Below, one piece after another: positions 48,252-63,448 of a stretch of 64,000 nucleotides of DNA (positions are counted from its first letter, which is position 1; each line of letters opens with the position of its first letter). Made by a program: the position numbers and the translations under genes. The notes beneath the pieces were generated by a model. It was not told the origin of the DNA, did no database searches, and worked only from the letters and a program-made list of their open reading frames with translations. This DNA is from Chlorobiaceae bacterium (GTDB lineage: Bacteria > Bacteroidota > Ignavibacteria > UBA10030 > SZUA-254): positions 53,415 to 117,414 of the forward strand of contig PNNN01000051.1 in the NCBI GenBank assembly GCA_013824245.1, read 5' to 3'.

Positions 48252-48689
48252 TTAGATGGTCAAACTGTATTGTGGCTTTTTATTGTCGTCTGCCATTTCG
48301 AGTATATTTTTTGAAGCAAGCATATGATGAATTCTTTCGCGGATTATTTCCCACTGATCGTGGACAGCACAATGATCGTCATGGGTACAATTTGGAAAGC
48401 CCAAAACGCAACTATTTATTAAGGAGAGACCATCTATAGCTTCAACTATCTGAAGTATAGTGATATCTTTTGCAGGTACTGCTAAACCAAATCCACCCGC
48501 GGGACCCTTATGTGAAACCAAAAATCCTTTGCGTGTGAGGTCTTGGAGTATTTTCGCTACAAAATGGTAAGGAATATCAATACGTTTAGTTAACTCTCGT
48601 ATTGAAGTCATCTCATTTTGTGGTTTCAATGCCAGATACAGCACGGCTTGTAGTGCATATTCGCATTGCCTGCTAAAAAGTATACTCAT
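48252..48689 (-). CDS. Rrf2 family transcriptional regulator with Fe-S cysteines
   Basis: EYALQA, KILQDL, S.KGPAGGF and C-x6-C-x5-C motifs. Confidence 0.93.
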   Translation of the reverse strand: MSILFSRQCEYALQAVLYLALKPQNEMTSIRELTKRIDIPYHFVAKILQDLTRKGFLVSHKGPAGGFGLAVPAKDITILQIVEAIDGLSLINSCVLGFPNCTHDDHCAVHDQWEIIRERIHHMLASKNILEMADDNKKPQYSLTI

Positions 48690-48720: not shown

Positions 48721-49722
48721 TTATTTGTAGCTGTGAAGAGATTTCATATAATTCGCACGTTCAAATGCTGCCGGATCAGCCACAGATTTCTGGCTCATGC
48801 TTCCTTTAAGTTGTTGCACCGACACATATTCGTGTTCATCCATCCATCGTTCAACTTCGGTAAGGGTTTTTTTAATATGTTCTGGTCCATATTTAAGAAG
48901 GGCAGAGCACATCATTGTAACATCAGCTCCTGCCATTAACATCTTTAATACATCATCACCATTATGGATTCCGCTCGATGCGGCAAGGTTAGCTTTAATT
49001 TGTCCGTGCAATATTGCAATCCATCGCATCGGCAATCGCAATGCTTGCGGTGAACTTAAGATTACATTCGGTTCAATTTCAAGAGTCTCCAAATCAATAT
49101 CGGGCTGATAGAAACGATTAAAGAGAACTAATCCATCAATACCGATATTGTCGAATTTCCGTGCCATATTTGCCATAGTTGTAAAAAAGGCACTTAGTTT
49201 CACTGCTACTGGTATCGTAACGCTTTTCTTCACTGTCTTGACTACTTCTAAATATTTATTCTCGAGTTCTGTTGATGAAACATCTGGATTGGTTGGGATG
49301 TAATAGATGTTCAGTTCCAGTGCGTCGGCGCCGGCATCCTGAATTTTTTTTGCATACTCGATCCACCCGCCAACCGAAACTCCGTTTAGACTGCCGATGA
49401 TAGGAATCCCGAGCGTTTTTTTTGCTTTTTGTATATGTTCAAGATATTCTTCGGGTCCGGTATTATATTGCTGAATTTCAGGAAAATAAGTCAGCGCCTC
49501 GGCATAACTTTCGGTGCCATGCGATAAATAATGTAGAAGTTCTGAACGCTCGTGCGCAATCTGTTCTTCGAAAAGTGAGTACATTACGATTGCTGAGGCA
49601 CCCGCATCTTCAAGTTGTTTCATGCTGTCGAGTGAGTAAGAAAGCGGCGATGCTGATGGAACTATCGGGTTTTTTAGTTTTTTCCCTAGGTATGTTGTGG
49701 TCAGATCCATTTTTATTTCCAT
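48721..49722 (-). CDS. Dihydroorotate dehydrogenase-like flavoprotein
   Basis: [40 protein letters not shown] and FERANY motifs. Confidence 0.88.
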
Positions 49723-49762: not shown

Positions 49763-52700
49763 TTATTTTTGTGCGGAGTTGTCGTTGCCACGAGCAAGAT
49801 GTTCATACATCTTCCAGCGTGTTTCTATGTCGCTTTGAGCGAGAGCGCCTAATTCCTTTGCTCTCTCAGGATAACTTTTTTCGAGCATTTTAAATCGGGT
49901 TTCTAAATCTGTAAATTCTTTTAACTTCCGGCTTGGGGCTTTCGAATCGAGTTTGAAAGGATTTTTTCCCTCAAGTGTCAGCATTGGATTATATCTATAA
50001 AGAGGAAAATAACCAGTCTCCACAGCAAGTTTTTGATTTTGCATTCCGCGCGTCATATTTATACCGTGTGCTATGCAATGGCTATATGCTATGATAATCG
50101 AAGGACCATTATATGCTTCTGCCTCAATGAATACGCGGAGTGTTTGTAGATCGTTCGAGCCCATTGCAACTGTTGCTACATATACATTTCCATACGCCAT
50201 CGCCAAGAGACCTAAATCTTTTTTTGCCGTCGGTTTTCCGTTCGCGGCAAATTTTGCTATCGCTGAACGGGATGTAGCTTTCGACATTTGTCCGCCCGTG
50301 TTAGAATACACTTCGGTATCTAAGACAAGGATATTTACATTTTTGCCAGTAGCAATCACATGATCTAATCCGCCATATCCTATATCATAAGCCCAGCCAT
50401 CTCCACCGATAATCCAAACACTGCGTTTCACGAGATTATCACAAAGACTTAGCAAGCTCTTAGCTTCCGGGGAAGAGATGTTCTTTAATTTATCTTTAAG
50501 AATCTGTACTCTCTCGCGCTGTGTATAAATACCGGCTTCATCTTTTTGATCGGCAGTCAATAACTCGTTTGCAAGTGTTTCGCCGATCTGAGATTTTAAT
50601 TTCTCAACCAACTCTTTTGCCATCTCGGTATGTTTATCGACAGTGAGACGCATTCCAAGACCAAATTCTGCATTGTCTTCAAAAAGTGAATTCGACCATG
50701 TTGGTCCACGACCGTTAATATCTACACAATATGGGGTTGTTGGCAAATTACCGCCATAGATCGATGAACATCCGGTTGCGTTGGCAATGATTGTTCTGTC
50801 GCCAAAAAGTTGTGTAACTAACTTAATATACGGCGTTTCTCCGCATCCGGCACATGCACCTGAATATTCAAACAAGGGACGTAAAAATTGTGAACCTTTA
50901 ATGGTATCTACCTTAACAGTTCGTCTGTCTATATCCGGTATATTCAAAAAGAAATCGTAGTTTAACCGCTCGGATTCACGGATGGGTGGCTGCGGTTTCA
51001 TATTGATAGCTTTCACTTTTGTTTCCGATTTACTCTTTGCCGGACAAATGTCAACGCAAAGACCGCATTCTGTGCAATCTTCAGGTGCGATTTGTATTGT
51101 GTACTTCATTCCTTTGTATTCTGTACCTTTAAAATCGATCGACTTAAATGTGGCAGGAGCTTTATCGAGGAATTTCGAGTCATAAACTTTTGCACGAATT
51201 GCGGCATGAGGACATACCATAACGCACTTATTGCACTGGATGCAAATCTCTGATTCCCAAACCGGAATTTCCAATGCGATGTTTCTCTTTTCCCATTGAG
51301 CTGTGGCTGTTGGGAACGTTCCATCTATCGGCATTGCGCTGACGGGGAGTTCATCACCGTTACCTGCGACTATTTTACCAAGAACATTTTTAACATAATC
51401 GGGGGCTTGGAGCGACACTATCGGAGGCATTTCAATATTGCTTGTAACTTTATCAGGTATCTTCACTTCGAATAGGTTAGCAAGAGTTTGATCAACCGCC
51501 TCGAAATTTTGTGTTACAATATCAGCGCCCTTTTTACCGTAAGTTTTTTCTATTGAATGTTTGATTGCCGCTATCGCGTCATCTTTCGGTAATACACCCG
51601 ATATGGCAAAGAAGCAGGTTTGCATGATTGTATTTATGCGTGTTCCCATGCCGGTTTGTCGTCCGACATTATACGCATCTATTACATAAAGTTTGATCTT
51701 TTTATCAATGATCTGTTTTTGTATATGTCGCGGAAGTTTATCCCACACTTCATTCGGTCCGTATAAACTATTTAAAAGAAATGTTGCGCCTTTAATTGCG
51801 GTTTTAAGTACATCATATTTCTCAAGAAAGAACCATTGATGACATGCGATAAAACTTGCTTTATCGATCAAATATGTTGAGTGAATCGGTCGTGGTCCAA
51901 AACGTAAATGCGATATTGTTGTTGAACCCGATTTTTTTGAATCGTACACGAAATATCCTTGCGCATAAAAATCTGTATCTTCACCGATGATCTTGATCGA
52001 GTTTTTATTGGCGCTAACAGTTCCATCTGCCCCGAGACCAAAGAAAATTGCTCTCACCACATCGTCGGATTCGGTTGTGAATGATAGGTCGTATTCTAAA
52101 CTTGTTTTTGTTACATCATCGTTGATGCCGACATTGAAATGATTTTTGGGTTGTGTTTTTTTCATTTCGTCAAAAACAGTTTTTACCATAGCAGGTGTAA
52201 ATTCTTTTGATGAAAGACCATATCTGCCGCCGATAATTTTAGGATATGAGAATGGCAAATTGTTATTTATGAATGCTTCACTGATTGTAGTTACAACATC
52301 CTGATACAGCGGTTCACCGGTTGCTCCGGGTTCTTTCGTTCGATCTAAAACCGCGATATTCTTAACCGATTTCGGTATTGCTTTTAAGAAATGTTCCATC
52401 GAGAATGGTCGAAATAGACGAACTTTCAACAGCCCGATCTTTTCCCCTTTTTGATTGAGATGTTCTACCGTTTCGTGTGCCGCTTCTGCGCCCGAACCCA
52501 TCATTATAATAATTCGCTCCGCATCAGGCGATCCCACGTATTGAAATAATTCATATTTGCGCCCGACCATTTGTTCGAACTTTCGCATCGTTTTCTCAAT
52601 GATCGCAGGGCAAGCATCGTAAAATGGATTTACGGTTTCTCTTGCCTGAAAGTAGACATCAGGATTTTGGGCGGTGCCGCGAAGAACAGGTCTATCGGGA

Positions 52701-53332
52701 GACATAGCTCTTGAACGATGAGCGCGGATTAATTCATCGTTGATCATTGTCCGCATATCGTCTTCTGTCAGTTGTTCTATCTTCATTACTTCATGAGACG
52801 ACCGAAAACCATCAAAAAAGTGTATGAACGGAATACGCGATTCCAAAGTTGCCGCCTGAGCGATTAATGCGAAGTCCATTATTTCCTGCAGCGAATTTGA
52901 TGACAGCATTGCCCATCCGGTTGATCGCGCAGCCATCACATCGCTGTGTTCTCCAAAAATTGAAAGGGCATGGGTTGCAACAGTTCGCGCGGCGATATGA
53001 AACACTGTCGACGTTAACTCGCCCGCAATCTTGAACATATTCGGTATCATCAACAATAATCCCTGCGCCGATGTGAAAGTCGTTGATAATGCTCCTGTTT
53101 GAAGTGCGCCGTGCACCGCACCAGCCGCTCCTCCTTCACTTTGCATCTCGATCACTTGCGGTATCGTTCCCCACAAATTTCTTTTCCCGAGAGCCGACCA
53201 CTCATCGGACCATTCACCCATATTGGAAGAAGGTGTTATTGGATAGATAGCAATTACTTCATTTGTTTTGTGCGCGACATATGCGGCAGCTTCGTTACCG
53301 TCTATAGTGACCATTGTTCGATTTTGTTTCAT
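49763..53332 (-). CDS. nifJ: Pyruvate:ferredoxin (flavodoxin) oxidoreductase
   Basis: YPITPS, MQSEGGAAG, GLGADGTV, two ferredoxin motifs, GACAGCGE, GGDGWAYDIG and YSNTGGQ. Confidence 0.97.
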   Translation of the reverse strand: MKQNRTMVTIDGNEAAAYVAHKTNEVIAIYPITPSSNMGEWSDEWSALGKRNLWGTIPQVIEMQSEGGAAGAVHGALQTGALSTTFTSAQGLLLMIPNMFKIAGELTSTVFHIAARTVATHALSIFGEHSDVMAARSTGWAMLSSNSLQEIMDFALIAQAATLESRIPFIHFFDGFRSSHEVMKIEQLTEDDMRTMINDELIRAHRSRAMSPDRPVLRGTAQNPDVYFQARETVNPFYDACPAIIEKTMRKFEQMVGRKYELFQYVGSPDAERIIIMMGSGAEAAHETVEHLNQKGEKIGLLKVRLFRPFSMEHFLKAIPKSVKNIAVLDRTKEPGATGEPLYQDVVTTISEAFINNNLPFSYPKIIGGRYGLSSKEFTPAMVKTVFDEMKKTQPKNHFNVGINDDVTKTSLEYDLSFTTESDDVVRAIFFGLGADGTVSANKNSIKIIGEDTDFYAQGYFVYDSKKSGSTTISHLRFGPRPIHSTYLIDKASFIACHQWFFLEKYDVLKTAIKGATFLLNSLYGPNEVWDKLPRHIQKQIIDKKIKLYVIDAYNVGRQTGMGTRINTIMQTCFFAISGVLPKDDAIAAIKHSIEKTYGKKGADIVTQNFEAVDQTLANLFEVKIPDKVTSNIEMPPIVSLQAPDYVKNVLGKIVAGNGDELPVSAMPIDGTFPTATAQWEKRNIALEIPVWESEICIQCNKCVMVCPHAAIRAKVYDSKFLDKAPATFKSIDFKGTEYKGMKYTIQIAPEDCTECGLCVDICPAKSKSETKVKAINMKPQPPIRESERLNYDFFLNIPDIDRRTVKVDTIKGSQFLRPLFEYSGACAGCGETPYIKLVTQLFGDRTIIANATGCSSIYGGNLPTTPYCVDINGRGPTWSNSLFEDNAEFGLGMRLTVDKHTEMAKELVEKLKSQIGETLANELLTADQKDEAGIYTQRERVQILKDKLKNISSPEAKSLLSLCDNLVKRSVWIIGGDGWAYDIGYGGLDHVIATGKNVNILVLDTEVYSNTGGQMSKATSRSAIAKFAANGKPTAKKDLGLLAMAYGNVYVATVAMGSNDLQTLRVFIEAEAYNGPSIIIAYSHCIAHGINMTRGMQNQKLAVETGYFPLYRYNPMLTLEGKNPFKLDSKAPSRKLKEFTDLETRFKMLEKSYPERAKELGALAQSDIETRWKMYEHLARGNDNSAQK

Positions 53333-53910: not shown

Positions 53911-55074
53911 TTATCTTACAAAATATTCTGCAATCACCTTCTGCCAACTCACATCGGAAAGTTCTTCAAGTTGCCCGATATAAATCTGACCCTCTTCTAT
54001 ATATTCACCTTCTCGTTTTTCGGATTTCAATATATCCTTTATTAATATTTTGCAATTTTCAATATCATTCTGGAATAAAGCAACAGCAGATTTACCGATG
54101 TACATTCCTTTAATTTCGTCATCTATTTTATCCGTATCAAGAGCGCAAATCCAATTTCTTTCATAAGGGGTCATCTCTAGTGCCACAAGATTTCTCAGCA
54201 AAACTGTATTTACCTGTGATACTTTTCCGGTAATTGGAGAATTAAAAGTAACGCTTCTGCCTCCTTGCTTCACCGTAAATAGCGGCTGACCAGCTTTTAT
54301 GTTCATACCAAGATTTGGAAGTTCAATCGAATCTATTTTGCCAATTAATTTTTTAGCAAAGTCATCTATGCCAATTTTTGTAATTCCTTCTTGATTGATG
54401 CTAAACCATGTATGATTCTTAGCTATGAATACACCGCCGGGAATTGAAAACTCTCCTTTGATAAAATCATGCGAGGCTGGAAGATGAGTGATATGCACAT
54501 TAGGTTTGAGTTGCTTCTGGATTTTATCCTGTCTTTTAATTAATATTTTCTTCACGAAGGCAAGAAGCTCGTCTTCGGTAAATGGTTTTTGGACATAATC
54601 CATTACACCATATTTCATCGTTTCAACAGCAGTTTCCACAGAAGCGTATCCTGTAATAATAATTACATCTATGTCGGGGCGTAAATGTTTTACCGACTTT
54701 GTCACTTCAACTCCATCCATGAGTGGCATTTTGAGATCGGTAAAAACAAAATCGTAATGACGTTTTTGTATCAAACCGAGAGCTTCCTGACCTGTTTCTA
54801 CAGTATCTATAGAGTAACCGTCAAGCACAAGAATTTTTCTGAAGCTGCCAAGAATAACTTCCTCATCATCAACACAAAGAATTTTAGCTTTTGGATTTCC
54901 GACTTCAGCACGTTTTAATGTTTTTGCCTCGCTGGTAAAATCTAGCTTAAGACTTTCCTGTAAAACAATTTCACGCTCTTTCTTTAACTTATTTTCGGTT
55001 AAGCGCTTGCTAATCATACGGATCAAGATATCAGCAATGATGAATATAATTACTGCAAGTATTAATAATGCCAT
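53911..55074 (-). CDS. Membrane-anchored response regulator: TM + receiver + GcvH-like domain
   Basis: N-terminal hydrophobic helix; CVDDE/TDLKMP/TGY/QKPF receiver motifs; HTW...IGIDDFA...SPITGKV...N...PYERNWI H-protein fold. Confidence 0.88.
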   Translation of the reverse strand: MALLILAVIIFIIADILIRMISKRLTENKLKKEREIVLQESLKLDFTSEAKTLKRAEVGNPKAKILCVDDEEVILGSFRKILVLDGYSIDTVETGQEALGLIQKRHYDFVFTDLKMPLMDGVEVTKSVKHLRPDIDVIIITGYASVETAVETMKYGVMDYVQKPFTEDELLAFVKKILIKRQDKIQKQLKPNVHITHLPASHDFIKGEFSIPGGVFIAKNHTWFSINQEGITKIGIDDFAKKLIGKIDSIELPNLGMNIKAGQPLFTVKQGGRSVTFNSPITGKVSQVNTVLLRNLVALEMTPYERNWICALDTDKIDDEIKGMYIGKSAVALFQNDIENCKILIKDILKSEKREGEYIEEGQIYIGQLEELSDVSWQKVIAEYFVR

Positions 55075-55112
55075 GGCGTTTCTCCTAAAAAGAATAATTT
55101 GTTAAACTTTTA

Positions 55113-55934
55113 TTAAGTACGAATCTGCATTCTATCTGAACTGCAAGGAACTAAATTTTTAATTTCATAACCAAGGTCATGAGGTATAACGCGATATACC
55201 CATCCTTCAAAGTAAGGATCTTTTTCGATCAGGTTAGAAACTAATTTAAGATTTTTATTCACATCAATTATTCTGCCTGAAACGGGAGAATGAATTTTAT
55301 GTATTCTCTCATCCCTTGATTTGATTGTAAGACAACTAATGCCTTGTGCGACCTCATTTTCAAGATCGAGAAATTCGATTTCTGCAACTGAATCAATTGT
55401 TGCAAGAAAAAAATCGCAAACACCTATTAAAACCGATCCATCCCTTTCTTCAAACAGCCAGCTTGAATGACCGAGACGATAATATTTTGCTGGGCAGTCA
55501 ACATAATATAATTCATTTTTTTGATCTTTTATTAACGATTGTTTTTGCTTCTTGTTAATTTGCTGATATTTGTTCGCGCGATAAATTGAACTCAGCAATT
55601 CGTCCACGGTAAATGGTTTGGGAATAAAATCTATTGCACCCCGGTAAAGTGAATTAACAGCGTTTTCAACAGTTGAATAGCCTGTCATCATTATTAAAGC
55701 GCTGTCGATATTTCTCTTTTGAAGCTCATTTAAAATCTGGAAACCATCACCATCGGGCATCATAATATCGCAGATGATAATAGAGTAATATTTTTTTGAG
55801 ATTTTATCAATTGCAGCCGTTACATTTAAAGCAGTATCAATTGAATAATTTTCGAGTGAGCAGATTTTAACCACTCCATCTATTATTACACTCTCATCAT
55901 CAATGACCAATATGTTCGATTGTTTATTCATCAA
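55113..55934 (-). CDS. Response regulator: receiver + GcvH-like domain
   Basis: VIDDE/CDIMMP/TGY/PKPF receiver motifs; HSSW...IGVCDFF...SPVSGRI..VN...DPYFEGWV H-protein fold. Confidence 0.88.
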   Translation of the reverse strand: MMNKQSNILVIDDESVIIDGVVKICSLENYSIDTALNVTAAIDKISKKYYSIIICDIMMPDGDGFQILNELQKRNIDSALIMMTGYSTVENAVNSLYRGAIDFIPKPFTVDELLSSIYRANKYQQINKKQKQSLIKDQKNELYYVDCPAKYYRLGHSSWLFEERDGSVLIGVCDFFLATIDSVAEIEFLDLENEVAQGISCLTIKSRDERIHKIHSPVSGRIIDVNKNLKLVSNLIEKDPYFEGWVYRVIPHDLGYEIKNLVPCSSDRMQIRT

Positions 55935-55940
55935 TCAAAC

Positions 55941-57812
55941 TTACTTCTGCTGTGTAAGTGGAAGCCGGATAATAAAAGTAGTACCTTTTTCTTCTTCGCT
56001 TTCAACGCTTATAGTTCCATTATGATTATCGATTATTCCCCAGATTACAGCCAAACCAAGTCCTGTACCTTTTTGTCCTTTAGTTGAGAAAAATGGCTCA
56101 AAGATTTTTGGAAGATCATCTTTACTAATTCCGCAACCCGTATCGCTGATTCTTATTTCTATATACTCTTTTAATCCCGAAGAATCAACAAAATCCCATT
56201 TCTCCCAGTTACTGTTTTCAGAAGAACATACTTCGTAAACACCCTGCCCGCTTATCTCGAATGCAAGAACAGGCGCGCCGCATTGGGGGCAGGATTTATC
56301 GGGCTGAACAAGCGATGTATCGCAATCCGGGCAAACAAATTTGGTCTCTTTATCTATTTTAACTCCGGGATAATAATGGTTACGATGTTTTCCGTAAACA
56401 GGATCAAGATGAATTATTCCCCCATTGCCGGCAGAAACAACTTTTACTTTCAATGCCGGTAGCCCGTCAATCTTAAAATCGTTATCAATTAGACTGTGAC
56501 GTTTTGGACATGATGCTTTCTTTATCTGAGCAACTCCAAATGGGGAAAGAGAAATTTGTTTTTTAACTATTGTTATTGTTCCACCGTCTTTGCCAATTGC
56601 ATCTGACGCATTTACAAAAAGGTTGATGAATACTTGTTGAATTTGATTTGAATCGACAGTTATTGGGGGAAGATTGTTTTCCGACTTTCTGATAATTTTT
56701 ATTTTTTTTACCGACAACTGTTTTTCAACTACAATGATTGCTTTGTCAATAATTTCATTCAAATTTGCATTGCTTTTTCTGGGAACGGACTGCCGAGCAA
56801 AATCCAATAAGCTTTTTACAATTTCCCGGCTTCGTATAGTTTCTCTGACGATAATATTCAGATCTTCCTGAAGTTCGGGGTTATCCTTTGTTCTCTTTAA
56901 AAGAAAGCTGCTGTAAGTCAGGACTCCGGTCAGGGGGTTATTTATTTCGTGAGCAACGCCTGCGGCAAGGCGTCCCAGCGAAGCCATTTTGTCCGATTGA
57001 AAAAGCTGCATGCGTGCTTCTGCGAGCTTCTTTGTCATATTGTTAAATGAAGAACCAAGTTTTCCTATTTCATCATCGCTGAGATCTTTAATGGCATAAT
57101 TCAAATTCCCCTGACTAACCTGTAATGTCGCATTCAACAAATCATTAACGGGATTAGATACCCAGCGTCTTACGAAGAAAGCGATCAATAATCCAACTGC
57201 GATTATTGCAACAATTGCAAAGATCACAATTTCCAATTCTCGTGTAATAATCGCGTTATCAACCTCTGCAAGGGAGATTGAAACATCCAGAACACCAAGA
57301 ACTTTTTGATTTTTCGGATGAGCATGACAGTTCGCCTGCCAACACGATGTTTCGTTGTAAATCGGGGTAATTATTCCAAGAACACGGTTGGAGTCTGGAT
57401 GAATCTTGAATATTCGGGTTCGCTCGGTGATAGAGATCTGCTCTAAAGGTTGATCTTCCGAGTGGCATGCATAACAACTCTCAGCACGCTTATCAACCAT
57501 TTTATTTATGTTTTTAGAATCGGATGAATAAATAATCTCACCGATTTTATTTATGATTCTCACATCTCTTATTTGCGGCTGCGTTCCAATTGAATTAATT
57601 GTCTGTTGAATTCTATCTCTTTGATTTAACATCATATCAAACCGGGTGCTGGATATAACCGTTTCACCAAGCTGATTTGCATGTCGTTCAACTTCAGAAA
57701 TCAAGCTGCTGCTCTGCGATGTAATATTGAAGTATGCAAATACGCCAATTATTACAAGCGATGTTAATGCAACAGCGAATATTAACCGAAATCCAATCTT
57801 CTTAAAAAGCAT
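55941..57812 (-). CDS. Histidine kinase with a periplasmic heme-c sensor, HAMP domain and Cys-rich insertion in the ATPase domain
   Basis: CYACH and CWQANCH between TM1 and TM2; GVAHEINNPL H-box; about 120 aa insertion with CPKRH/CPDC/CPQC between the N-box and DTGCGI; FEPFFSTK and GTGLGL. Confidence 0.92.
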   Translation of the reverse strand: MLFKKIGFRLIFAVALTSLVIIGVFAYFNITSQSSSLISEVERHANQLGETVISSTRFDMMLNQRDRIQQTINSIGTQPQIRDVRIINKIGEIIYSSDSKNINKMVDKRAESCYACHSEDQPLEQISITERTRIFKIHPDSNRVLGIITPIYNETSCWQANCHAHPKNQKVLGVLDVSISLAEVDNAIITRELEIVIFAIVAIIAVGLLIAFFVRRWVSNPVNDLLNATLQVSQGNLNYAIKDLSDDEIGKLGSSFNNMTKKLAEARMQLFQSDKMASLGRLAAGVAHEINNPLTGVLTYSSFLLKRTKDNPELQEDLNIIVRETIRSREIVKSLLDFARQSVPRKSNANLNEIIDKAIIVVEKQLSVKKIKIIRKSENNLPPITVDSNQIQQVFINLFVNASDAIGKDGGTITIVKKQISLSPFGVAQIKKASCPKRHSLIDNDFKIDGLPALKVKVVSAGNGGIIHLDPVYGKHRNHYYPGVKIDKETKFVCPDCDTSLVQPDKSCPQCGAPVLAFEISGQGVYEVCSSENSNWEKWDFVDSSGLKEYIEIRISDTGCGISKDDLPKIFEPFFSTKGQKGTGLGLAVIWGIIDNHNGTISVESEEEKGTTFIIRLPLTQQK

Positions 57813-57843: not shown

Positions 57844-58983
57844 TTATTTACCAACTAATATCCCTGGTTTTTGCTTTGGATATACAAAGTTTTCGTGGCA
57901 ACCATTGCAGCCGGGTTTAACAGAATAATCATTACCGGCATGGCAATCTTCGCAGCCAAGTTCTGAATGTGGCTCGGTAAGCCGCAAGCCGGTTACATAA
58001 TGCTTAAAGGTTTCTTTTTTCCAGTTCTTATGGCAACTTACACATTGATTATTAAGTTTTTGATATGGCCGCTTTGATCCATGACAATTAATACAAGAAA
58101 GATTAATGTGATGTTTTTTCAGCGCCCACCCAGTTCTCTTCTCATGATTAAATTGTTCAACTTGTTTATCAAGATGACATTTTGCACAGTCATCTTTTGC
58201 GTGACAACTAAAGCATTTTTTATGGTGGTCTTCTAATGATTTTTTCTCCTTTACTAATTTTAATTTATCACTCGATGGATTATTCACATCATGGCATTTC
58301 GTGCAGCTTTCCTGTGCATGGCAGTCAATACAATTTAATTTGAAATTTTTTACGTGGTCGTCATGATAGTAAGTTACAAACTTTCCTTTTTCATAATTTG
58401 TTTCGTAGACAATTTTAGTTGGTTCAGTAACGGGTGGATGAACTTTACCTGCTAATTGTTTTTTCGACTCCTCTTTATGTGATCCTTTTACTTCGCTTAT
58501 TGGAATGTGGCAAGATTTGCAACCTGTTTCATGACTCCACTCTCGATGGCACTCCATACATTGTCTGTGATAAGCGCCTTTCAGATCAAGAATGGCGATA
58601 TTCTCTCGTTGTCTTGAGGGTTCATGACATTTGCTACATTTTAAAATTTGTTCTAAAGTATTGTGATGATGGCAATTCCCACAGCCACCAAGCATTACGG
58701 ACATCTGTGCATGGATCCTGTGTGAAAAATAAACAGGACCAAACCTCTCATTCGCTTGATCAATAATAACAAGTTCATCGGTTTGTTCGGCTTTGAGATA
58801 AACCGTAATCATTTTTTCACGAGGACAAGCTACCCAGCAAGGTTCATCTTTTGTTGGGAGACCACAAGTATGACATGATACACAATTAATGTGCAGCTTC
58901 GCGTGATCTTTACCGGGGCTCTGCTGTGCATAAGTTCCAACTGTAAAAAATAATACAAATATAACGGCAAAAATCTTTTTCAT
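57844..58983 (-). CDS. Periplasmic multiheme cytochrome c3-like protein (13 CxxCH)
   Basis: Signal peptide; 13 CxxCH motifs counted; FSH..H and LKGAYHRQC c3-type motifs. Confidence 0.92.
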   Translation of the reverse strand: MKKIFAVIFVLFFTVGTYAQQSPGKDHAKLHINCVSCHTCGLPTKDEPCWVACPREKMITVYLKAEQTDELVIIDQANERFGPVYFSHRIHAQMSVMLGGCGNCHHHNTLEQILKCSKCHEPSRQRENIAILDLKGAYHRQCMECHREWSHETGCKSCHIPISEVKGSHKEESKKQLAGKVHPPVTEPTKIVYETNYEKGKFVTYYHDDHVKNFKLNCIDCHAQESCTKCHDVNNPSSDKLKLVKEKKSLEDHHKKCFSCHAKDDCAKCHLDKQVEQFNHEKRTGWALKKHHINLSCINCHGSKRPYQKLNNQCVSCHKNWKKETFKHYVTGLRLTEPHSELGCEDCHAGNDYSVKPGCNGCHENFVYPKQKPGILVGK

Positions 58984-60227
58984 TTTTCCACTCCTCTGAT
59001 TGTATATTTTTTGGGTTGGGCAGTTTGTTGACCGGGTAAGCTTATGACAGGAAAATTCATGACAATAAATCTGTACGCGAGAACCAACAGTGCCACAAAT
59101 CCCACAGTTACCGAAATTTCACCGAATGATGGAAAATACGATTCGGTTGAATAAGGTGGCGTATATGCAACAACAAAATTATTTATTCGGTTCAACAATA
59201 CTCCGAAAACAACAAGTGCCGATGCTGTAAAAAGAAGCGGAGGTGATTTCAAAACTTTTGGTGATAAGAACATTCTTAATGGAATAATTACGCCCAAAAC
59301 AACTTCGATTGAAAACATTACGCTCGCAGTTGTAAATTCATTTAAATAAACAAACGTTTCTCTGATGAACATATCACCGATCTTAAACGCAAGATATATT
59401 CCCAGCAATGGTGCGATCATCGAACCTAATCTTGAAAGAATGTGCATTTCAGGTTTTAACTTTAGTGAACGCGAAGCTATCAGAGATTCAAAAATCACCA
59501 TCGGGAAACCAACAGAAACCGCAGATAGTAAAAATAACAACGGGAGAACAGGGGTTTGCCAGAGCGGATGCATCTTTGGTCCGGCAATAACCATTAATGT
59601 GCCGAGTGAAGACTGATGAAGTGTTGAGAGAACAACTCCTGCAATTATAAATATGAACATGGTTTTTGAAAGTCCGCGATCAAGTAATCTCAATATTTTA
59701 TCGGCGGGTTTGTTTAAGGCAGTGAGTAATCCGGGTAGATTAACTTTTCCGATAAATCGTTCTGTAACAATCGGAAGAAATTCAATGTAGAGAACCGTCA
59801 TATAAATCATAACGCAGATGCCGACTTCAAACAAAGCCGAATTTCCATTCCACATAATTAATGGATGCCAGATGAAGTACCATCTTCCTATATCAACAAA
59901 AACTCCTACTGCAACAAAAGTATAGCCGAGCATAGCCGTTAACAATGCGGGGCGTACAATGGCATGATATTCTTCTTTGTGCATAACATGGCCGAAAGCT
60001 GCGGTTGTAAATCCACCAGCGGCAAGCGCAACACCGGCAGCAACATCAACTCCAATCCATAATCCCCATGGGTATTGATCGTTAAGATTCGTTACCGCAC
60101 CCAAGCCAAAGAAAAATCTTCCCATCAGGAAAACTAAACCATTGAGGGCAATTACGATGAGTACATAAACACCGGGTGTAAAAAATTTATGTTTGATTGG
60201 AACGGGATTAACTAATTCGTGGCTCAT
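58980..60227 (-). CDS. NrfD/HybB/HmcC family integral membrane quinol-interacting subunit
   Basis: GLGAVTNLNDQYPWGLWIG.DV..GVALAAGG, DIGR, SALFEV and LSTLHQSSLG motifs. Confidence 0.92.
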   Translation of the reverse strand: MSHELVNPVPIKHKFFTPGVYVLIVIALNGLVFLMGRFFFGLGAVTNLNDQYPWGLWIGVDVAAGVALAAGGFTTAAFGHVMHKEEYHAIVRPALLTAMLGYTFVAVGVFVDIGRWYFIWHPLIMWNGNSALFEVGICVMIYMTVLYIEFLPIVTERFIGKVNLPGLLTALNKPADKILRLLDRGLSKTMFIFIIAGVVLSTLHQSSLGTLMVIAGPKMHPLWQTPVLPLLFLLSAVSVGFPMVIFESLIASRSLKLKPEMHILSRLGSMIAPLLGIYLAFKIGDMFIRETFVYLNEFTTASVMFSIEVVLGVIIPLRMFLSPKVLKSPPLLFTASALVVFGVLLNRINNFVVAYTPPYSTESYFPSFGEISVTVGFVALLVLAYRFIVMNFPVISLPGQQTAQPKKYTIRGVEK

Positions 60228-61138
60228 ATTTTTTCTTCCTCTTCTAATTCTTTACGACGTTTTGTAATCCACATGATTCCGCCCAGCAGTGCATATAAAG
60301 AAACAGGCGGAACGAAGTAAGCGAAAATTCCATGCTGGATAGATTCGGAAACACCGGGGGCAGGATTTTTTCCCAAATCGGGAAAATCAAGTTCCTTAAA
60401 TTCTTTAGAAGCAAGGTACATCCATGAAGTGCCTCCAACCTCATATTCACCCAAAATATGATTAACATAACGATTAGGATTTCGTTTAATACGATTACGT
60501 GCAATTTTAATTAGTTCATGTCTGGGTCCACATGTAAGTGCTTCAACCGGACAAATGTTAACACAGGCGGGAAGTTTTCCATCTTTTGTTCTATTAAAAC
60601 AAAAATCGCATTTCATGATTAATGGATTAATTGCTTTGTCGTACTCGAATGCCGGAATCTGGAACGGGCACGCAGCCATACAATAACGGCAGCCGATGCA
60701 CATATCTGTATCCCAGATAACCGATCCGTTTTCTTGTTTAGAAAAAGCGCCAACAATGCAGGCAGAGACACAAGCCGGATGATCGCAATGCATACACTGT
60801 ACTTTCACATCAACGGGAAGATTTGAATTTTTACCGTGAGGATATTCATTAACAACTGTAAGTGCTGTTTGATCAGGTCTTCTTTTAGTTTCTAGAATTT
60901 TTCTGTCTTCATAGGAATCTAAATTACCGGCAGGTAAATTATGAGCATCTTTGCAAGCCCATTCACAATTTCGACAGCCGACACAGGCAGTTGTATCAAC
61001 TAAAACTCCCATCCTGTCTTCTGATAAAATATTTTTAGGTCCTGCTTTTGCTGTTGATGCCGAAAGTCCTGTAGCCACAGACCCTATTGCTACAGATTTT
61101 TTTAGAAAATCGCGACGGCTTTTGCCAGACATTTTCAT
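60224..61138 (-). CDS. Tat-exported 4x[4Fe-4S] subunit, HybA/HmcB/NrfC family
   Basis: SRRDFLK Tat motif; CVGCRNCEWAC, QCMHCDHPACVSAC, CIGCRYCMAACP and KCDFC...PAC..ICP; C-terminal TM helix. Start at ATG 61138 or 61132. Confidence 0.93.
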   Translation of the reverse strand: MKMSGKSRRDFLKKSVAIGSVATGLSASTAKAGPKNILSEDRMGVLVDTTACVGCRNCEWACKDAHNLPAGNLDSYEDRKILETKRRPDQTALTVVNEYPHGKNSNLPVDVKVQCMHCDHPACVSACIVGAFSKQENGSVIWDTDMCIGCRYCMAACPFQIPAFEYDKAINPLIMKCDFCFNRTKDGKLPACVNICPVEALTCGPRHELIKIARNRIKRNPNRYVNHILGEYEVGGTSWMYLASKEFKELDFPDLGKNPAPGVSESIQHGIFAYFVPPVSLYALLGGIMWITKRRKELEEEEKI

Positions 61139-61352
61139 ACCTTTCAAAAAGGATTAAGACAATTTAACGATAAATACAGCGGGCTGTCCATCTTATTCTA
61201 AAATTATGCCAATATTATACTGAAAACATTTAAAATAAGAAAGTTTGAATTTATTGATTACGTTTAGATTTGCGGGCTTTAGATTTAACTTTGTTAGATT
61301 ACCACTTTAATAGAATTCTCAATATTGACAATTTAATTTTAAACAGTGATAA

Positions 61353-61387
61353 ATAAAAACCCCAGTAAGAATGACCGGGGTTTTTAT
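61353..61387 (-). terminator. Intrinsic (possibly bidirectional) terminator after the octaheme cytochrome gene
   Basis: ATAAAAACCCC ... GGGGTTTTTAT inverted repeat. Confidence 0.75.
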
Positions 61388-61407: not shown

Positions 61408-62823
61408 TTATTTCATCAATAACATTTTTCTGGAGAATGTCATATTGTTGGTCTCGAGCTTGTAGAAATATAAACCGCTCGGTAAATTAGCCGGTGAAAA
61501 TGTTGCAGTATGAATTCCGGCGGGGAGCGATTGATTTTTTAATATTTTTCCTACTTCATGCCCGATCACATCATACACAGTTAATGTAACAAGTGATGCT
61601 TTTGGCAAATGAAATTCGATCGACGTCGATGGATTAAATGGATTCGGATAATTTTGGAGAAGTTCAAATTTCTCAGGGACTTGATTGCCCTGTTTAGATC
61701 GAACATCAGTTGTTAAAGTTGTATCGAATCCTAACTTTGACATCTGGTATTTTGTTAACGGTGTTGCGAAAAACATCTGATGACCATCCGGTGAGCTCTT
61801 ACCAATCGGCGACCAATTTTTTGATGGAACAACTGGATCTGTCGGAGCGCCGTTGTACGTTAGATAGTCCATCTTAAGAGAACGTTGATAATCTGCCGGA
61901 ATAGGAACTATTCCTGTTTTGGCTGTGATTGTGCTGTCGAGTGCATTCCACTTTGCAAAGTAGATTTCACCTGTAGCATTATACTCTGCGATTGCCGGAA
62001 TGTTACCGCCAAAGTTTTGATGACAGTCGACGCATTTGCGTCCAGTTGAATCGATTGTATGCGATGTAAAAGGTCCGAATGCTGCCCAGGCATTTCCCTG
62101 AAATGTGAGGGACTGGAATGTTGCCGGATAAACTTTGTTATCTTTCGTTCGATTAACGAGCATAACAAAATTATGAAGAGTTTGTTTTGCGCGTTTCTTT
62201 CCAACAATCTGACTTTCGAGATGGCAGCTATAGCATGATGCGACTGTTTTTGCATGGCAGGCAGTGCAATGTATCTTTCCTCCGTGTGGATCATAACTAG
62301 AATGATCCGGAAGAGTTGCTGGTGAATTATGACAATTATCACAATCGACAGTTATCGCTCCCGGTTCAAGCATTGAATTATAAACTGTCGAAGTTCCGTG
62401 CATATCGGCTGATGTGTGGCAATCCCAACATTTAAAACCGGCTGTGCGATGTACATCAGTATATCCAAGCGTAACTGCTTCAGTTTTTTGGCGACTGTGG
62501 CAACCGAGACATTGGTCAACTTTAATAGAATCTGGATTGAATGCAGAGTTTGTTGGATGACAATCGACGCATCCGGGAGTATAGTCGACTGGGTAAGCAA
62601 CTCCATCTGCGTCTAAAGGTCCGTGGCACTTCGTGCAACCCATACCTCCGCTGTCGATAGCGACGTTGGTCAACTGTTCAAATCCTCCATTTGCTTTACC
62701 ATACCAGAAGTTTTTGCCTGCTCGAGTTTTATGTAAGCTCGTATTGAAATCAGCTTGTGAAAAAATCGTACCATACACGAAAAAGCAGAGTATTGCTATC
62801 AATAATGGTCTAAAATTTTTCAT
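61408..62823 (-). CDS. Octaheme cytochrome c with T9SS C-terminal sorting domain
   Basis: AGGAG SD before the ATG at 62823; signal peptide; 8 CxxCH motifs; C-terminal LLQNYPNPFNPST.IEF...VYD..G...PSGLYFYKL...RKMLLMK. Confidence 0.92.
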   Translation of the reverse strand: MKNFRPLLIAILCFFVYGTIFSQADFNTSLHKTRAGKNFWYGKANGGFEQLTNVAIDSGGMGCTKCHGPLDADGVAYPVDYTPGCVDCHPTNSAFNPDSIKVDQCLGCHSRQKTEAVTLGYTDVHRTAGFKCWDCHTSADMHGTSTVYNSMLEPGAITVDCDNCHNSPATLPDHSSYDPHGGKIHCTACHAKTVASCYSCHLESQIVGKKRAKQTLHNFVMLVNRTKDNKVYPATFQSLTFQGNAWAAFGPFTSHTIDSTGRKCVDCHQNFGGNIPAIAEYNATGEIYFAKWNALDSTITAKTGIVPIPADYQRSLKMDYLTYNGAPTDPVVPSKNWSPIGKSSPDGHQMFFATPLTKYQMSKLGFDTTLTTDVRSKQGNQVPEKFELLQNYPNPFNPSTSIEFHLPKASLVTLTVYDVIGHEVGKILKNQSLPAGIHTATFSPANLPSGLYFYKLETNNMTFSRKMLLMK

Positions 62824-62929
62824 ATGAATAGCTCCTATATTAATTGATACATGCGGTGATTTAATATTAGTATTGATTTTATATTTCATTGATCATTGTT
62901 ATAAGCACAAATTGATGCAAAATAATCTT

Positions 62930-63388
62930 CTACCCAATTGTCCATTTTTTCATTGCCTGATGTAATTTCTCCATTGCAAAAATAACCGACTCGTCTGCGC
63001 CCGGTGGAAGTAAATCAAGAATATCCCTGTGTGCTTTTATATAAATTTGATCTATGGCGTGTTGTATTTTTTTCCCTGCATTTGTTATTGTTATCTTCAT
63101 AGTTCTGCGATCATTAACACCCAGCTCCCGCATAACAAATTTCTTTTCTACCAGACCATCAAGTATTCTGGTAAGTCGACTGCTTGAAAGCTCCATACGC
63201 TTAGCAAGGTCGCCTACGGAAAGAGAACTATCATCACGGAAACTTAGGAACAATTTAAATTCAGCAACTGTCAATCCTAAATTATTTGCCATCTGTTCTT
63301 GTTTTTGTTGGCATTGTTCAAGCAAGGCAAAAGTTAAATCTGCCATTTTCTCGGCTTGTTTATTTTTTTCTATTTCAGTGTTCTTCAT
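62930..63388 (-). CDS. MarR family transcriptional regulator
   Basis: GLTVAEF, LSVGDLAKRM.LSSSRLTRILDGL and DRR..KI.IT.AG motifs; start moved to the ATG at 63388, downstream of the promoter. Confidence 0.92.
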   Translation of the reverse strand: MKNTEIEKNKQAEKMADLTFALLEQCQQKQEQMANNLGLTVAEFKLFLSFRDDSSLSVGDLAKRMELSSSRLTRILDGLVEKKFVMRELGVNDRRTMKITITNAGKKIQHAIDQIYIKAHRDILDLLPPGADESVIFAMEKLHQAMKKWTIG

Positions 63389-63419
63389 TTCTCGATTGCT
63401 ATCAATATTTGCTACTAAC

Positions 63420-63448
63420 AATATATGACAATGCGATATAAAAATCAA
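63420..63448 (-). promoter_or_regulatory. Sigma70-type promoter of the marR-family gene
   Basis: Minus strand TTGATT-17 nt-TATATT. Confidence 0.6.

Follow-up and report, generated by a model that had tools for sequence, protein, structure and literature searches.

Organization of the six-gene unit and its two regulators

We analysed a stretch of 64,000 nucleotides (the window) from the genome assembly of a Chlorobiaceae bacterium assigned to the class Ignavibacteria. The window holds a compact unit of six genes, all on the minus strand, which encode in this order an Fe-S protein, an NrfD-family membrane protein, a multiheme cytochrome, a sensor histidine kinase and two response regulators, here called RR2 and RR1. 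The junctions between the genes are tight, ranging from a 4-base overlap to a gap of 38 bases. Both regulators join a receiver (REC) domain to a domain related to the glycine cleavage H protein (GcvH), in which the lysine that carries the lipoyl group is missing.

RR2 (55113..55934) is a soluble protein of 273 residues. Its TTG start codon may have to be replaced by an ATG located one codon later, and the Atlas entry of the protein indeed begins at residue 2. The receiver occupies residues 8–117 (55584..55913) and is detected by Pfam Response_reg with an E-value of 7.6e-25 and 87.7 bits, compared to a cut-off of 30.2. Among 86 RR2-type sequences D13, D56 and K106 are conserved in at least 90%, and P107 is conserved as well. 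The GcvH-like domain follows at residues 151–255 (55170..55484; Pfam GCV_H E 4.3e-15, 56.1 bits, cut-off 22.2).

RR1 (53911..55074) is longer with 387 residues and consists of a transmembrane (TM) helix, a charged and conserved linker, a receiver, a GcvH-like domain and a helical extension. The N-terminal anchor comprises residues 1–19 (55018..55074) and has a mean Kyte-Doolittle hydropathy of 2.79. An aspartate (D15) and an arginine (R19) within the anchor are invariant in 36 sequences, as would be expected of a helix packed against other membrane helices. The receiver at residues 65–174 (54553..54882) matches Response_reg with an E-value of 1.1e-29 and 103.2 bits (cut-off 30.2). D69, D70, D113, T141, K163 and P164 are invariant in the 36 RR1 sequences, and the ratio of nonsynonymous to synonymous substitution rates (dN/dS) of the receiver is about 0.02. 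The GcvH-like domain is found at residues 218–320 (54115..54423; GCV_H E 4.3e-17, 62.6 bits, cut-off 22.2), followed by the C-terminal extension at residues 321–387 (53914..54114).

The GcvH-like domains are under purifying selection, as their dN/dS values lie between 0.06 and 0.14 (0.06–0.14 for RR1 and 0.08–0.13 for RR2). In RR2 the GcvH-like region furthermore contains a set of residues conserved among orthologs, namely C147, Q197-G198, C201, H212, H215 and C263. The three cysteines and two histidines of this set surround the former lipoyl hairpin, suggesting a possible metal or redox site; RR1 does not have these residues. A histidine three residues past the lipoyl position is present in 92 of 152 family members.

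Fold and loss of the lipoyl lysine

We modelled residues 196–387 of RR1 with AF2 using 48 aligned sequences. The model is confident (pLDDT 87.8, pTM 0.84) and resembles H-protein structures in Foldseek with E-values around 1e-10, target TM-scores of 0.85–0.92 and a root mean square deviation (rmsd) of 1.4–1.8. VIA-align superimposes it on the pea H-protein 1dxm with a Z-score of 18.7 and an rmsd of 1.5 over 131 residues, and on GcvH-L (5a35) with a Z-score of 12.3. Beyond the H-protein fold the model continues into three helices, one of them long and the others shorter, that have no structural match; helices are assigned at model residues 132–156 and 173–189. For RR2 the H-protein fold is assigned from sequence alone, and a single-sequence AlphaFold model reached a pLDDT of 34.

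We determined the residue at the lipoyl position by aligning both regulators to solved H-proteins, to which they show similarity with HMMER E-values between 1e-14 and 1e-9. In the alignment of RR1 with 1dxm (E 1.9e-11), which is gapless in this region, the lysine of ESVKA falls over the second glycine of KQGG, and in the alignment with the Mycobacterium tuberculosis H-protein the lipoyl lysine falls over an arginine. RR2 aligned with the proteins of Thermus thermophilus (1onl, E 4.9e-14) and Escherichia coli (3a8i) places the lysine over the glutamate of SRDE. The position is devoid of lysine in 38 out of 38 distinct relatives aligned. We also compared the C-terminal domain of RR2 with 1.84 billion cluster representatives, obtaining 1231 matches at E ≤ 1e-3. 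Within 152 domain sequences, which represent the best 150 of these matches plus RR1, RR2 and the canonical GcvH, the lipoyl column holds glycine in 78, glutamate in 21, aspartate in 11 and lysine in 10 sequences, the canonical GcvH being one of the latter. The structural motifs of H-proteins (SPxSG, N, DPY and GW) are all kept in the domains of RR1 and RR2.

Three proteins of the genome match GCV_H. Besides RR1 and RR2 this is a canonical GcvH of 129 residues with the lipoylation sequence EAVKAVSD, encoded beside gcvP on contig C17. RR1 and RR2 were aligned to this protein too, and together with the solved H-proteins it places glycine (or arginine) of RR1 and glutamate of RR2 over the lipoyl lysine. 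The NCBIfam model used for naming GcvH (PRK01202) has a cut-off of 117 bits, which neither RR1 (62.7) nor RR2 (55.6) reaches. By their sequences, and by the lysine that defines the lipoyl carriers, the two regulators are true receivers but neither GcvH nor LbpA, the lipoate-binding GcvH-like protein.

A helix-turn-helix (HTH), AAA+ or other output family was not found in RR1 or RR2 using Pfam and NCBIfam, and NCBIfam models of DNA-binding regulator families match both proteins over the receiver part only. As no DNA-binding domain is present, the output would have to act through protein contacts. An earlier, sequence-only reading of this DNA had described two regulators with intact receiver motifs, a GcvH fold as their only output, no lipoyl lysine in either and a membrane anchor on one. 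The peptides it cited occur in the translated genes, and all four observations hold: the active-site residues are invariant or nearly so among orthologs, no second output domain accompanies GCV_H, the lysine is replaced by glycine (or arginine, depending on the alignment) in RR1 and by glutamate in RR2, and RR1 is the anchored protein.

The sensor histidine kinase

The kinase gene (55941..57812) is situated between those of the cytochrome and RR2. Its product contains a TM segment, a periplasmic domain, a second TM segment and the domains HAMP (Pfam E 1.4e-11), HisKA (4e-15) and HATPase_c (1.1e-23), with the hydrophobic segments at residues 3–21 and 186–204. The periplasmic domain (57258..57749) is presumed to be a c-type heme sensor on account of two CxxCH-type motifs: CYACH at residues 113–117 (nt 57462-57476) and CWQANCH, a Cx4CH variant, at residues 157–163 (nt 57324-57344). 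The kinase had previously been read as a heme-c protein. Both motifs are indeed conserved in 35 orthologs, from which attachment of heme to the sensor is predicted. Similarity of the sensor to known families is weak, with an E-value of 0.0011 for PF21563 (Mcp40H-20_sensor; 19.7 bits, below the cut-off of 27) and of 0.23 for PDB entry 3b42, the Cx4CH motif being aligned to the heme motif of 3b42. The kinase of one relative reaches an E-value of 1.2e-6 in this comparison with the sensor family.

Within the ATPase domain, the N box and the G1 box of the kinase are set apart by an extra segment of about 120 residues (approximately 425–545; 56178..56540). This insertion contains conserved CPxxH, CPxC and CPxC motifs and appears zinc-ribbon-like, with weak Pfam matches to Zn_Ribbon_1 and DZR (E 0.004–0.01).

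The redox module

The first gene of the unit (60224..61147) encodes a HybA/HmcB-like Fe-S subunit (Pfam Fer4_11, E 3.7e-19) with the twin-arginine (Tat) signal SRRDFLK and a C-terminal membrane tail at residues 274–292 as judged by hydropathy. It scores 332.4 bits against the NCBIfam model of HmcB (cut-off 420) and 240 bits against that of HybA (cut-off 263). Judging from these features, the subunit belongs to the tail-anchored Tat type, which 10.1101/2023.11.02.564894 describes for HmcB and HybA. The second gene (58980..60227) overlaps each of its neighbours by 4 bases and encodes a HybB/HmcC-like integral membrane subunit of the NrfD family (Pfam NrfD, E 1.5e-20), predicted to interact with quinone, with nine hydrophobic segments. 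Its NCBIfam scores are 356 bits for PRK10881 (Ni/Fe-hydrogenase cytochrome b, cut-off 450) and 278.8 bits for HmcC (cut-off 550). Fer4_11 and NrfD matches above the Pfam cut-offs, the Tat signal and the overlapping genes mark the pair as an NrfC/NrfD-type (HybA/HybB-like) module. The third gene (57844..58983) codes for a periplasmic multiheme cytochrome c with the Pfam domains Cytochrom_CIII and Cytochrome_C7, which begins with a signal-like segment and contains 13 CxxCH motifs.

We did not find hmcDEF genes in the unit; after the cytochrome gene their position is occupied by the genes for the kinase and the regulators. On the basis of the HmcB and HmcC scores below the cut-offs, the 13 hemes and the absence of hmcDEF, the redox module is classified as an Hmc/Nhc-like cytochrome:quinone unit and not as Hmc itself. 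A groundwater metatranscriptome run yielded contigs 90–97% like parts of the unit, some of which span the RR2/kinase and the cytochrome/NrfD junctions. These contigs belong to a relative and could in part derive from DNA, and a single transcript is not shown by them.

Conservation of the unit

Database searches retrieved RR2 homologs in 1101 clusters at E ≤ 1e-5 (1600 candidates scored), and the best 120 of them all carry both domains. For RR1 the best 120 database clusters are 79–100% identical over 386–387 residues. We then assessed gene order. A scan of one genome per species with the C-terminal domain of RR2 gave 459 relatives, from which 80 loci were kept, labelled as Ignavibacteria, Bacteroidota metagenome-assembled genomes and Calditrichia. 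Another 12 loci were added from more divergent members of the class, whose RR2 is 36–53% identical, resulting in 92 loci. According to tblastn the six-gene order is present wherever the flanking sequence allows in both Ignavibacteria and Calditrichia, including all 12 of the divergent loci. A stricter test based on open reading frames (ORFs) recovered the exact order in 59 of the 72 loci with enough flank. The remaining 13 are mostly due to split ORFs and include true variants (L005, L006, L060 and L086). RR1 directly follows RR2 in 85 of 87 loci, and the kinase gene directly precedes RR2 in 79 of 80. No DNA-binding gene is conserved within the six-gene unit across the loci.

Of 401 genomes sampled from the phylum, 25 have the RR2 type; they all belong to the class of the window and are distributed patchily across its families. 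The unit also occurs in a genome labelled Ignavibacterium album (L051). In one of the variants (L086:5173-7560) the NrfD and cytochrome genes form a single ORF of 795 residues, and an anchored GcvH-like gene is located directly upstream of the main Fe-S gene.

GcvH-like domains in other contexts

Relatives of the domain occur in several architectures. The majority are fusions of REC and GcvH-like domain; others are REC with GcvH-like and an HdrC-type Fe-S domain, DGC with GcvH-like, and a cysteine-rich N-terminus with GcvH-like domain. Anchored forms consist of a membrane anchor, GcvH-like domain and extension, in some cases preceded by a weakly matched PBP-like periplasmic domain. The GcvH-like domain and extension of RR1 align end to end with these TM-anchored and PBP-TM-anchored proteins, which have no receiver (REC-less). 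A protein search using the C-terminal part of RR1 alone gave only close orthologs among the matches listed. One database protein of 1391 residues (P0258) contains three tandem GcvH-like domains followed by an FAD-linked oxidase, an Fe-S domain and two CCG domains. CCG-domain proteins are also encoded elsewhere in the genome of the window, from which nothing specific follows.

The 92 loci hold 29 further, divergent HybA-like genes. An anchored REC-less GcvH-like gene is located directly upstream on the same strand in 24 of these, with an NrfD gene downstream in 22 of the 24. In L005, L006 and L060 a paralog of RR1 replaces the anchored GcvH-like gene upstream of the HybA-like gene, with a small cytochrome gene in between (checked by Pfam in L005).

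Class members with best matches to the anchored type provided a further sample of fourteen loci (L132–L145). The carriers of this REC-less cluster are relatives that do not have the RR2 system. The cluster (e.g. L138:774-8070) starts with genes for an anchored GcvH-like protein, a HybA-like protein without Tat signal, NrfD and a GcvH-like protein with a cysteine-rich N-terminus (C..WM..G....KLCD....CE.C), for which no Pfam family match was obtained. It ends with a heme-motif kinase having the same CxxCH plus Cx4CH sensor, an NtrC-type sigma-54 regulator and an M54-like peptidase. A GcvH-like gene directly precedes the kinase and regulator genes in 13 of the 14 loci, ten of which have an NrfD gene; the fourteenth (L140) has the NrfD gene only. 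The one kinase of this cluster that was read (L138) is without the ATPase insertion, and the other cluster kinases are 33–88 residues shorter than that of the window.

A metagenome scan with a distant clade of the domain yielded 24 loci. Seventeen of them (L096–L112, e.g. L098:8727-17945) encode a REC-GcvH-like-HdrC fusion. HdrB follows directly downstream in 14 of the 17, two are cut by the end of the contig and one is without HdrB. Behind HdrB we found HdrA-like or NfnB-like giants of 1000–1500 residues, MvhD, OsmC and 2Fe-2S proteins. Directly upstream of the fusion, a second REC-GcvH-like gene is present in six loci and a double-receiver protein in seven, and a Cache kinase together with an NtrC-type regulator lies upstream in three of the 17. 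In L114:2039-7501 and L115, which are identical in these genes, REC-GcvH-like is followed by a REC-Fer4_22 fusion of 485 residues, an FAD/NAD-binding protein and the large subunit of a NiFe hydrogenase. In addition to the HdrC fusion, REC-Fer4_22 provides another type of redox enzyme in which one subunit includes a receiver. One distant-clade locus is situated beside multiheme cytochromes.

In a tree of the GcvH-like domain RR1 groups with the anchored, PBP-anchored and cysteine-rich types (SH-like support 0.89); RR2 joins the soluble types that are fused to REC or to HdrC, with a support of 0.755. Based on this tree and on the end-to-end alignment with the REC-less types, RR1 looks like a membrane-anchored GcvH-like protein that gained an inserted receiver. 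By its sequence RR2 is of the soluble receiver-GcvH-like kind that other phyla encode beside HdrC and fuse to it. A maximum-likelihood tree of the combined receiver and GcvH-like domain (44 rows) separates soluble from tethered regulators with support 95/96. An ancient pair of a free and a tethered gene was considered and dropped, since trees of the single domains fail to repeat this split.

Genes surrounding the unit

A terminator-like hairpin, read directly from the sequence, lies on the minus strand (61355..61385) behind a cytochrome gene upstream of the unit, and about 200 AT-rich bases separate it from the first unit gene. A scan for consensus promoters and terminators performed at chance level and did not list this hairpin among its sites. 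The upstream cytochrome gene (61408-62889) has the same orientation as the unit and encodes 493 residues with eight CxxCH motifs and a C-terminal sorting domain of type IX secretion, which makes a location at the cell surface probable. It is followed by a gene for a regulator of the MarR family (62930-63448). Beside the unit in the other 80 loci, neither of these two gave a tblastn match covering at least half of its length. On the other side, RR1 is followed by genes for a pyruvate:ferredoxin oxidoreductase (49763-53332), a dihydroorotate-dehydrogenase-like protein (48721-49722) and, 5 kb downstream, a transcription regulator of the Rrf2 family (48252-48689; Pfam E 5e-31). The family owes its name to a Desulfovibrio gene that lies downstream of hmc and rrf1. 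The pyruvate:ferredoxin oxidoreductase and Rrf2 neighbours recur in few loci only (L005, L006 and L084).

Possible role of the GcvH-like domains

A linkage of homologs to HybA- and NrfD-type genes, on which the functional idea of the sequence-only reading depended, was borne out by the six-gene order in 59 of 72 loci and all 12 divergent members, and by the anchored lysine-less copies upstream of 24 of 29 HybA-like genes. Lysine-less GcvH-like domains also recur in fusion with HdrC. With this comparative support a phosphorylation-controlled module acting on the redox complex is plausible. More specifically, we favor, at somewhat less than an even chance, that the GcvH-like domains of RR1 and RR2 form a docking module controlled by phosphorylation, which acts on the redox complex post-translationally. 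The kinase would monitor with its presumed heme sensor how oxidized or reduced the cytochrome pool of the periplasm is, and would phosphorylate the receivers of both RR1 and RR2. The GcvH-like domain would serve as a protein-docking module that goes with the Fe-S subunits of redox complexes, and phosphorylation would alter its docking, either between the two regulators or onto that side of the HybA/NrfD/cytochrome complex which faces the cytoplasm. The transfer of electrons between quinones and the cytochrome of the periplasm could thereby be tuned without a transcription step. Each step of this scheme is a prediction, from the binding of heme and the phosphotransfer to the docking and its consequence for the complex. 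The same applies to the earlier proposals that RR1 and RR2 might form a heterodimer and that the complex might be gated or assembled by it. A complex prediction of RR1 (residues 55–387) with RR2, made with alignments and without controls, gave ipSAE values of 0.00 and 0.00 and speaks neither for nor against an interaction.

Several points weigh against docking on the complex. The scheme presumes binding of the GcvH-like domains to the complex or to each other. The Fe-S protein and the cytochrome are periplasmic, so that only the loops of NrfD and the tail of the Fe-S subunit offer a docking surface in the cytoplasm. Four distant-clade loci, which are two near-identical pairs, have tandem REC-GcvH-like genes beside a WD40/HEAT protein, with no redox genes within the stretch. 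The split between soluble and tethered regulators was not reproduced by FastTrees of the single domains, the receiver-only tree being weakly supported. Finally, three of the 14 REC-less loci keep GcvH-like genes beside the kinase though the HybA/NrfD pair is missing. This agrees with a partner among the signalling proteins as well as with one in the complex, and the domain may therefore address the kinase instead of the complex.

This last point leads to the main rival, in which the GcvH-like domains act on the kinase as co-sensors or feedback modulators, binding to its cytoplasmic part and perhaps to the zinc-ribbon-like insertion. We consider this unlikely on balance. It is consistent with the GcvH-like gene directly preceding a homologous kinase and NtrC-type regulator in 13 of the 14 REC-less loci, including the three without HybA/NrfD. 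The insertion of about 120 residues in window-type kinases can be counted in its favor too, being absent from the one REC-less-cluster kinase read. In RR1 and RR2 the function would have become fused to the receivers, which could double as phosphate sinks, an addition we likewise regard as improbable. However, an action on the kinase leaves unexplained why a REC-GcvH-like protein should be fused to HdrC or paired with REC-Fer4_22, and why anchored GcvH-like genes stand upstream of 24 of 29 HybA-like genes. In addition, the kinases of the distant clade are of the Cache type and not of the heme-c type.

It is similarly unlikely that the regulators bind or release, depending on phosphorylation, a remote target encoded elsewhere, such as a transcription factor, a sigma-54 activator, an anti-sigma factor or a metabolic enzyme. 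In that case the system would be a regulatory cascade of the ordinary sort, with its final step encoded outside the unit. Response regulators with protein-binding outputs are known (CheY, RssB and PhyR), NtrC-type regulators are encoded beside the GcvH-like genes in the REC-less cluster and in part of the Hdr-linked clade, and in the window the Rrf2-family regulator lies 5 kb downstream. Against this stand the six-gene unit without a conserved DNA-binding gene, the few loci with pyruvate:ferredoxin oxidoreductase and Rrf2 neighbours and the fixation of RR1 in the membrane. The physical fusion to HdrC, moreover, argues for an action at the enzyme.

Two explanations start from the H-protein itself. 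Having kept the fold and the SPxSG, N, DPY and GW motifs, the domains might work as decoys that bind GcvP, GcvT, GcvL or lipoate enzymes and thereby tie glycine cleavage or lipoylation to a redox signal. We judge this very improbable: the canonical gcvH-gcvP pair is encoded on another contig, where neither a receiver nor a kinase gene accompanies it within the 3.4 kb read, the annotated neighbours of GcvH-like genes in the loci examined include no gene for glycine cleavage (gcv) or lipoate, and the recurrent neighbours are Fe-S redox subunits. That RR1 and RR2 might still carry lipoate on another lysine seems hardly credible, for the lysine both have a few residues ahead of the hairpin tip (position -11 or -12 counted from the proline of SPxSG) is unconserved and reads T, V, D, E or others in relatives, the canonical position holds lysine in only 10 of 152 sequences with the canonical GcvH among them, and lipoyl ligases need the lysine at the exact tip of the hairpin.

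Docking on the redox complex thus remains our preferred reading, at the strength given above. A wider generalization, which we regard as doubtful but possible, would place lysine-less GcvH-like proteins in a widespread and so far unrecognised class of regulatory subunits, docked on the ferredoxin-like Fe-S subunits of respiratory and electron-bifurcating complexes of the NrfC/NrfD, Hdr and hydrogenase types. Through the receiver-bearing ones a two-component kinase could switch electron flow simply by phosphorylating them. Respiration would then be controlled post-translationally by a two-component system whose regulator is part of the enzyme. In nearly all cases two-component systems are interpreted as switches of transcription, and RR1 and RR2 are without any DNA-binding part. 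If docking is true, the redox state of the periplasm would have a direct and fast way to influence how active respiratory and bifurcating enzymes are, and a function could be given to sequence clusters, at least several hundred in number, that so far have automatic names. The question is testable, since the Ignavibacteria include a cultured species and the unit is present in the genome labelled Ignavibacterium album.

Comparison with known systems

In summary, the two regulators and their partners represent a real and strongly conserved signalling design that, as far as we found, is undescribed. No description of the receiver-GcvH combination was found in the literature searched, which covered full texts without supplements or key reviews on outputs, where a mention is possible. 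Automatic names of JGI record both domains, and the clusters are named 'response regulator' or 'glycine cleavage H protein' and are uncharacterised. Among the clusters looked up, a single organism name was given, Aerophobetes.

The sensor of the kinase can be compared to the heme sensor of a Geobacter chemoreceptor (3b42), as both are periplasmic, are placed between two membrane helices and have a CxxCH-type motif. The window sensor differs in having two motifs and in feeding a histidine kinase instead of a chemoreceptor, and the similarity is weak.

CheY, RssB, PhyR and PorX are response regulators with protein-binding, non-DNA outputs. Like these, RR1 and RR2 have receivers whose phosphorylation residues are intact, and a DNA-binding domain is missing. 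They differ from them in that both use the H-protein fold as output and that RR1 is anchored in the membrane. To our knowledge, the H-protein fold is not among the known outputs of protein-binding response regulators.

With GcvH, including GcvH-L of Streptococcus and Staphylococcus, the domains share fold and motifs. In contrast to GcvH they are without the lipoyl lysine, are fused to receivers (in RR1 also to an anchor and an extension) and are not encoded together with gcvP or gcvT. LbpA belongs to the sulfur-oxidising Hdr-like (sHdr) system, and according to PMC6067878 its genes always accompany the Hdr-like genes. Relatives of the RR1 and RR2 domains are likewise encoded beside HdrC/HdrB and fused to them. 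However, LbpA acts via lipoate, whereas RR1, RR2 and their Hdr-linked relatives lack the lysine and RR1 and RR2 carry receivers. The module of the window also differs from sHdr in consisting of HybA, NrfD and cytochrome, with no Hdr or ligase genes in the unit according to Pfam and NCBIfam.

A parallel in gene arrangement comes from Desulfovibrio vulgaris, where the response regulator gene rrf1, located downstream of hmc, affects hmc expression, as stated in 10.1101/2023.11.02.564894 and PMC13344952. A 2026 preprint likens Rrf1 homologs to a single-domain receiver. The unit of the window differs from Hmc by the missing HmcD, E and F, by 13 hemes compared to 16 in HmcA and by HmcB and HmcC scores below the cut-offs. 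It shares with the Hmc and Nhc complexes a periplasmic multiheme cytochrome, a tail-anchored Tat-type Fe-S protein, an NrfD-type membrane protein and a regulator encoded downstream.

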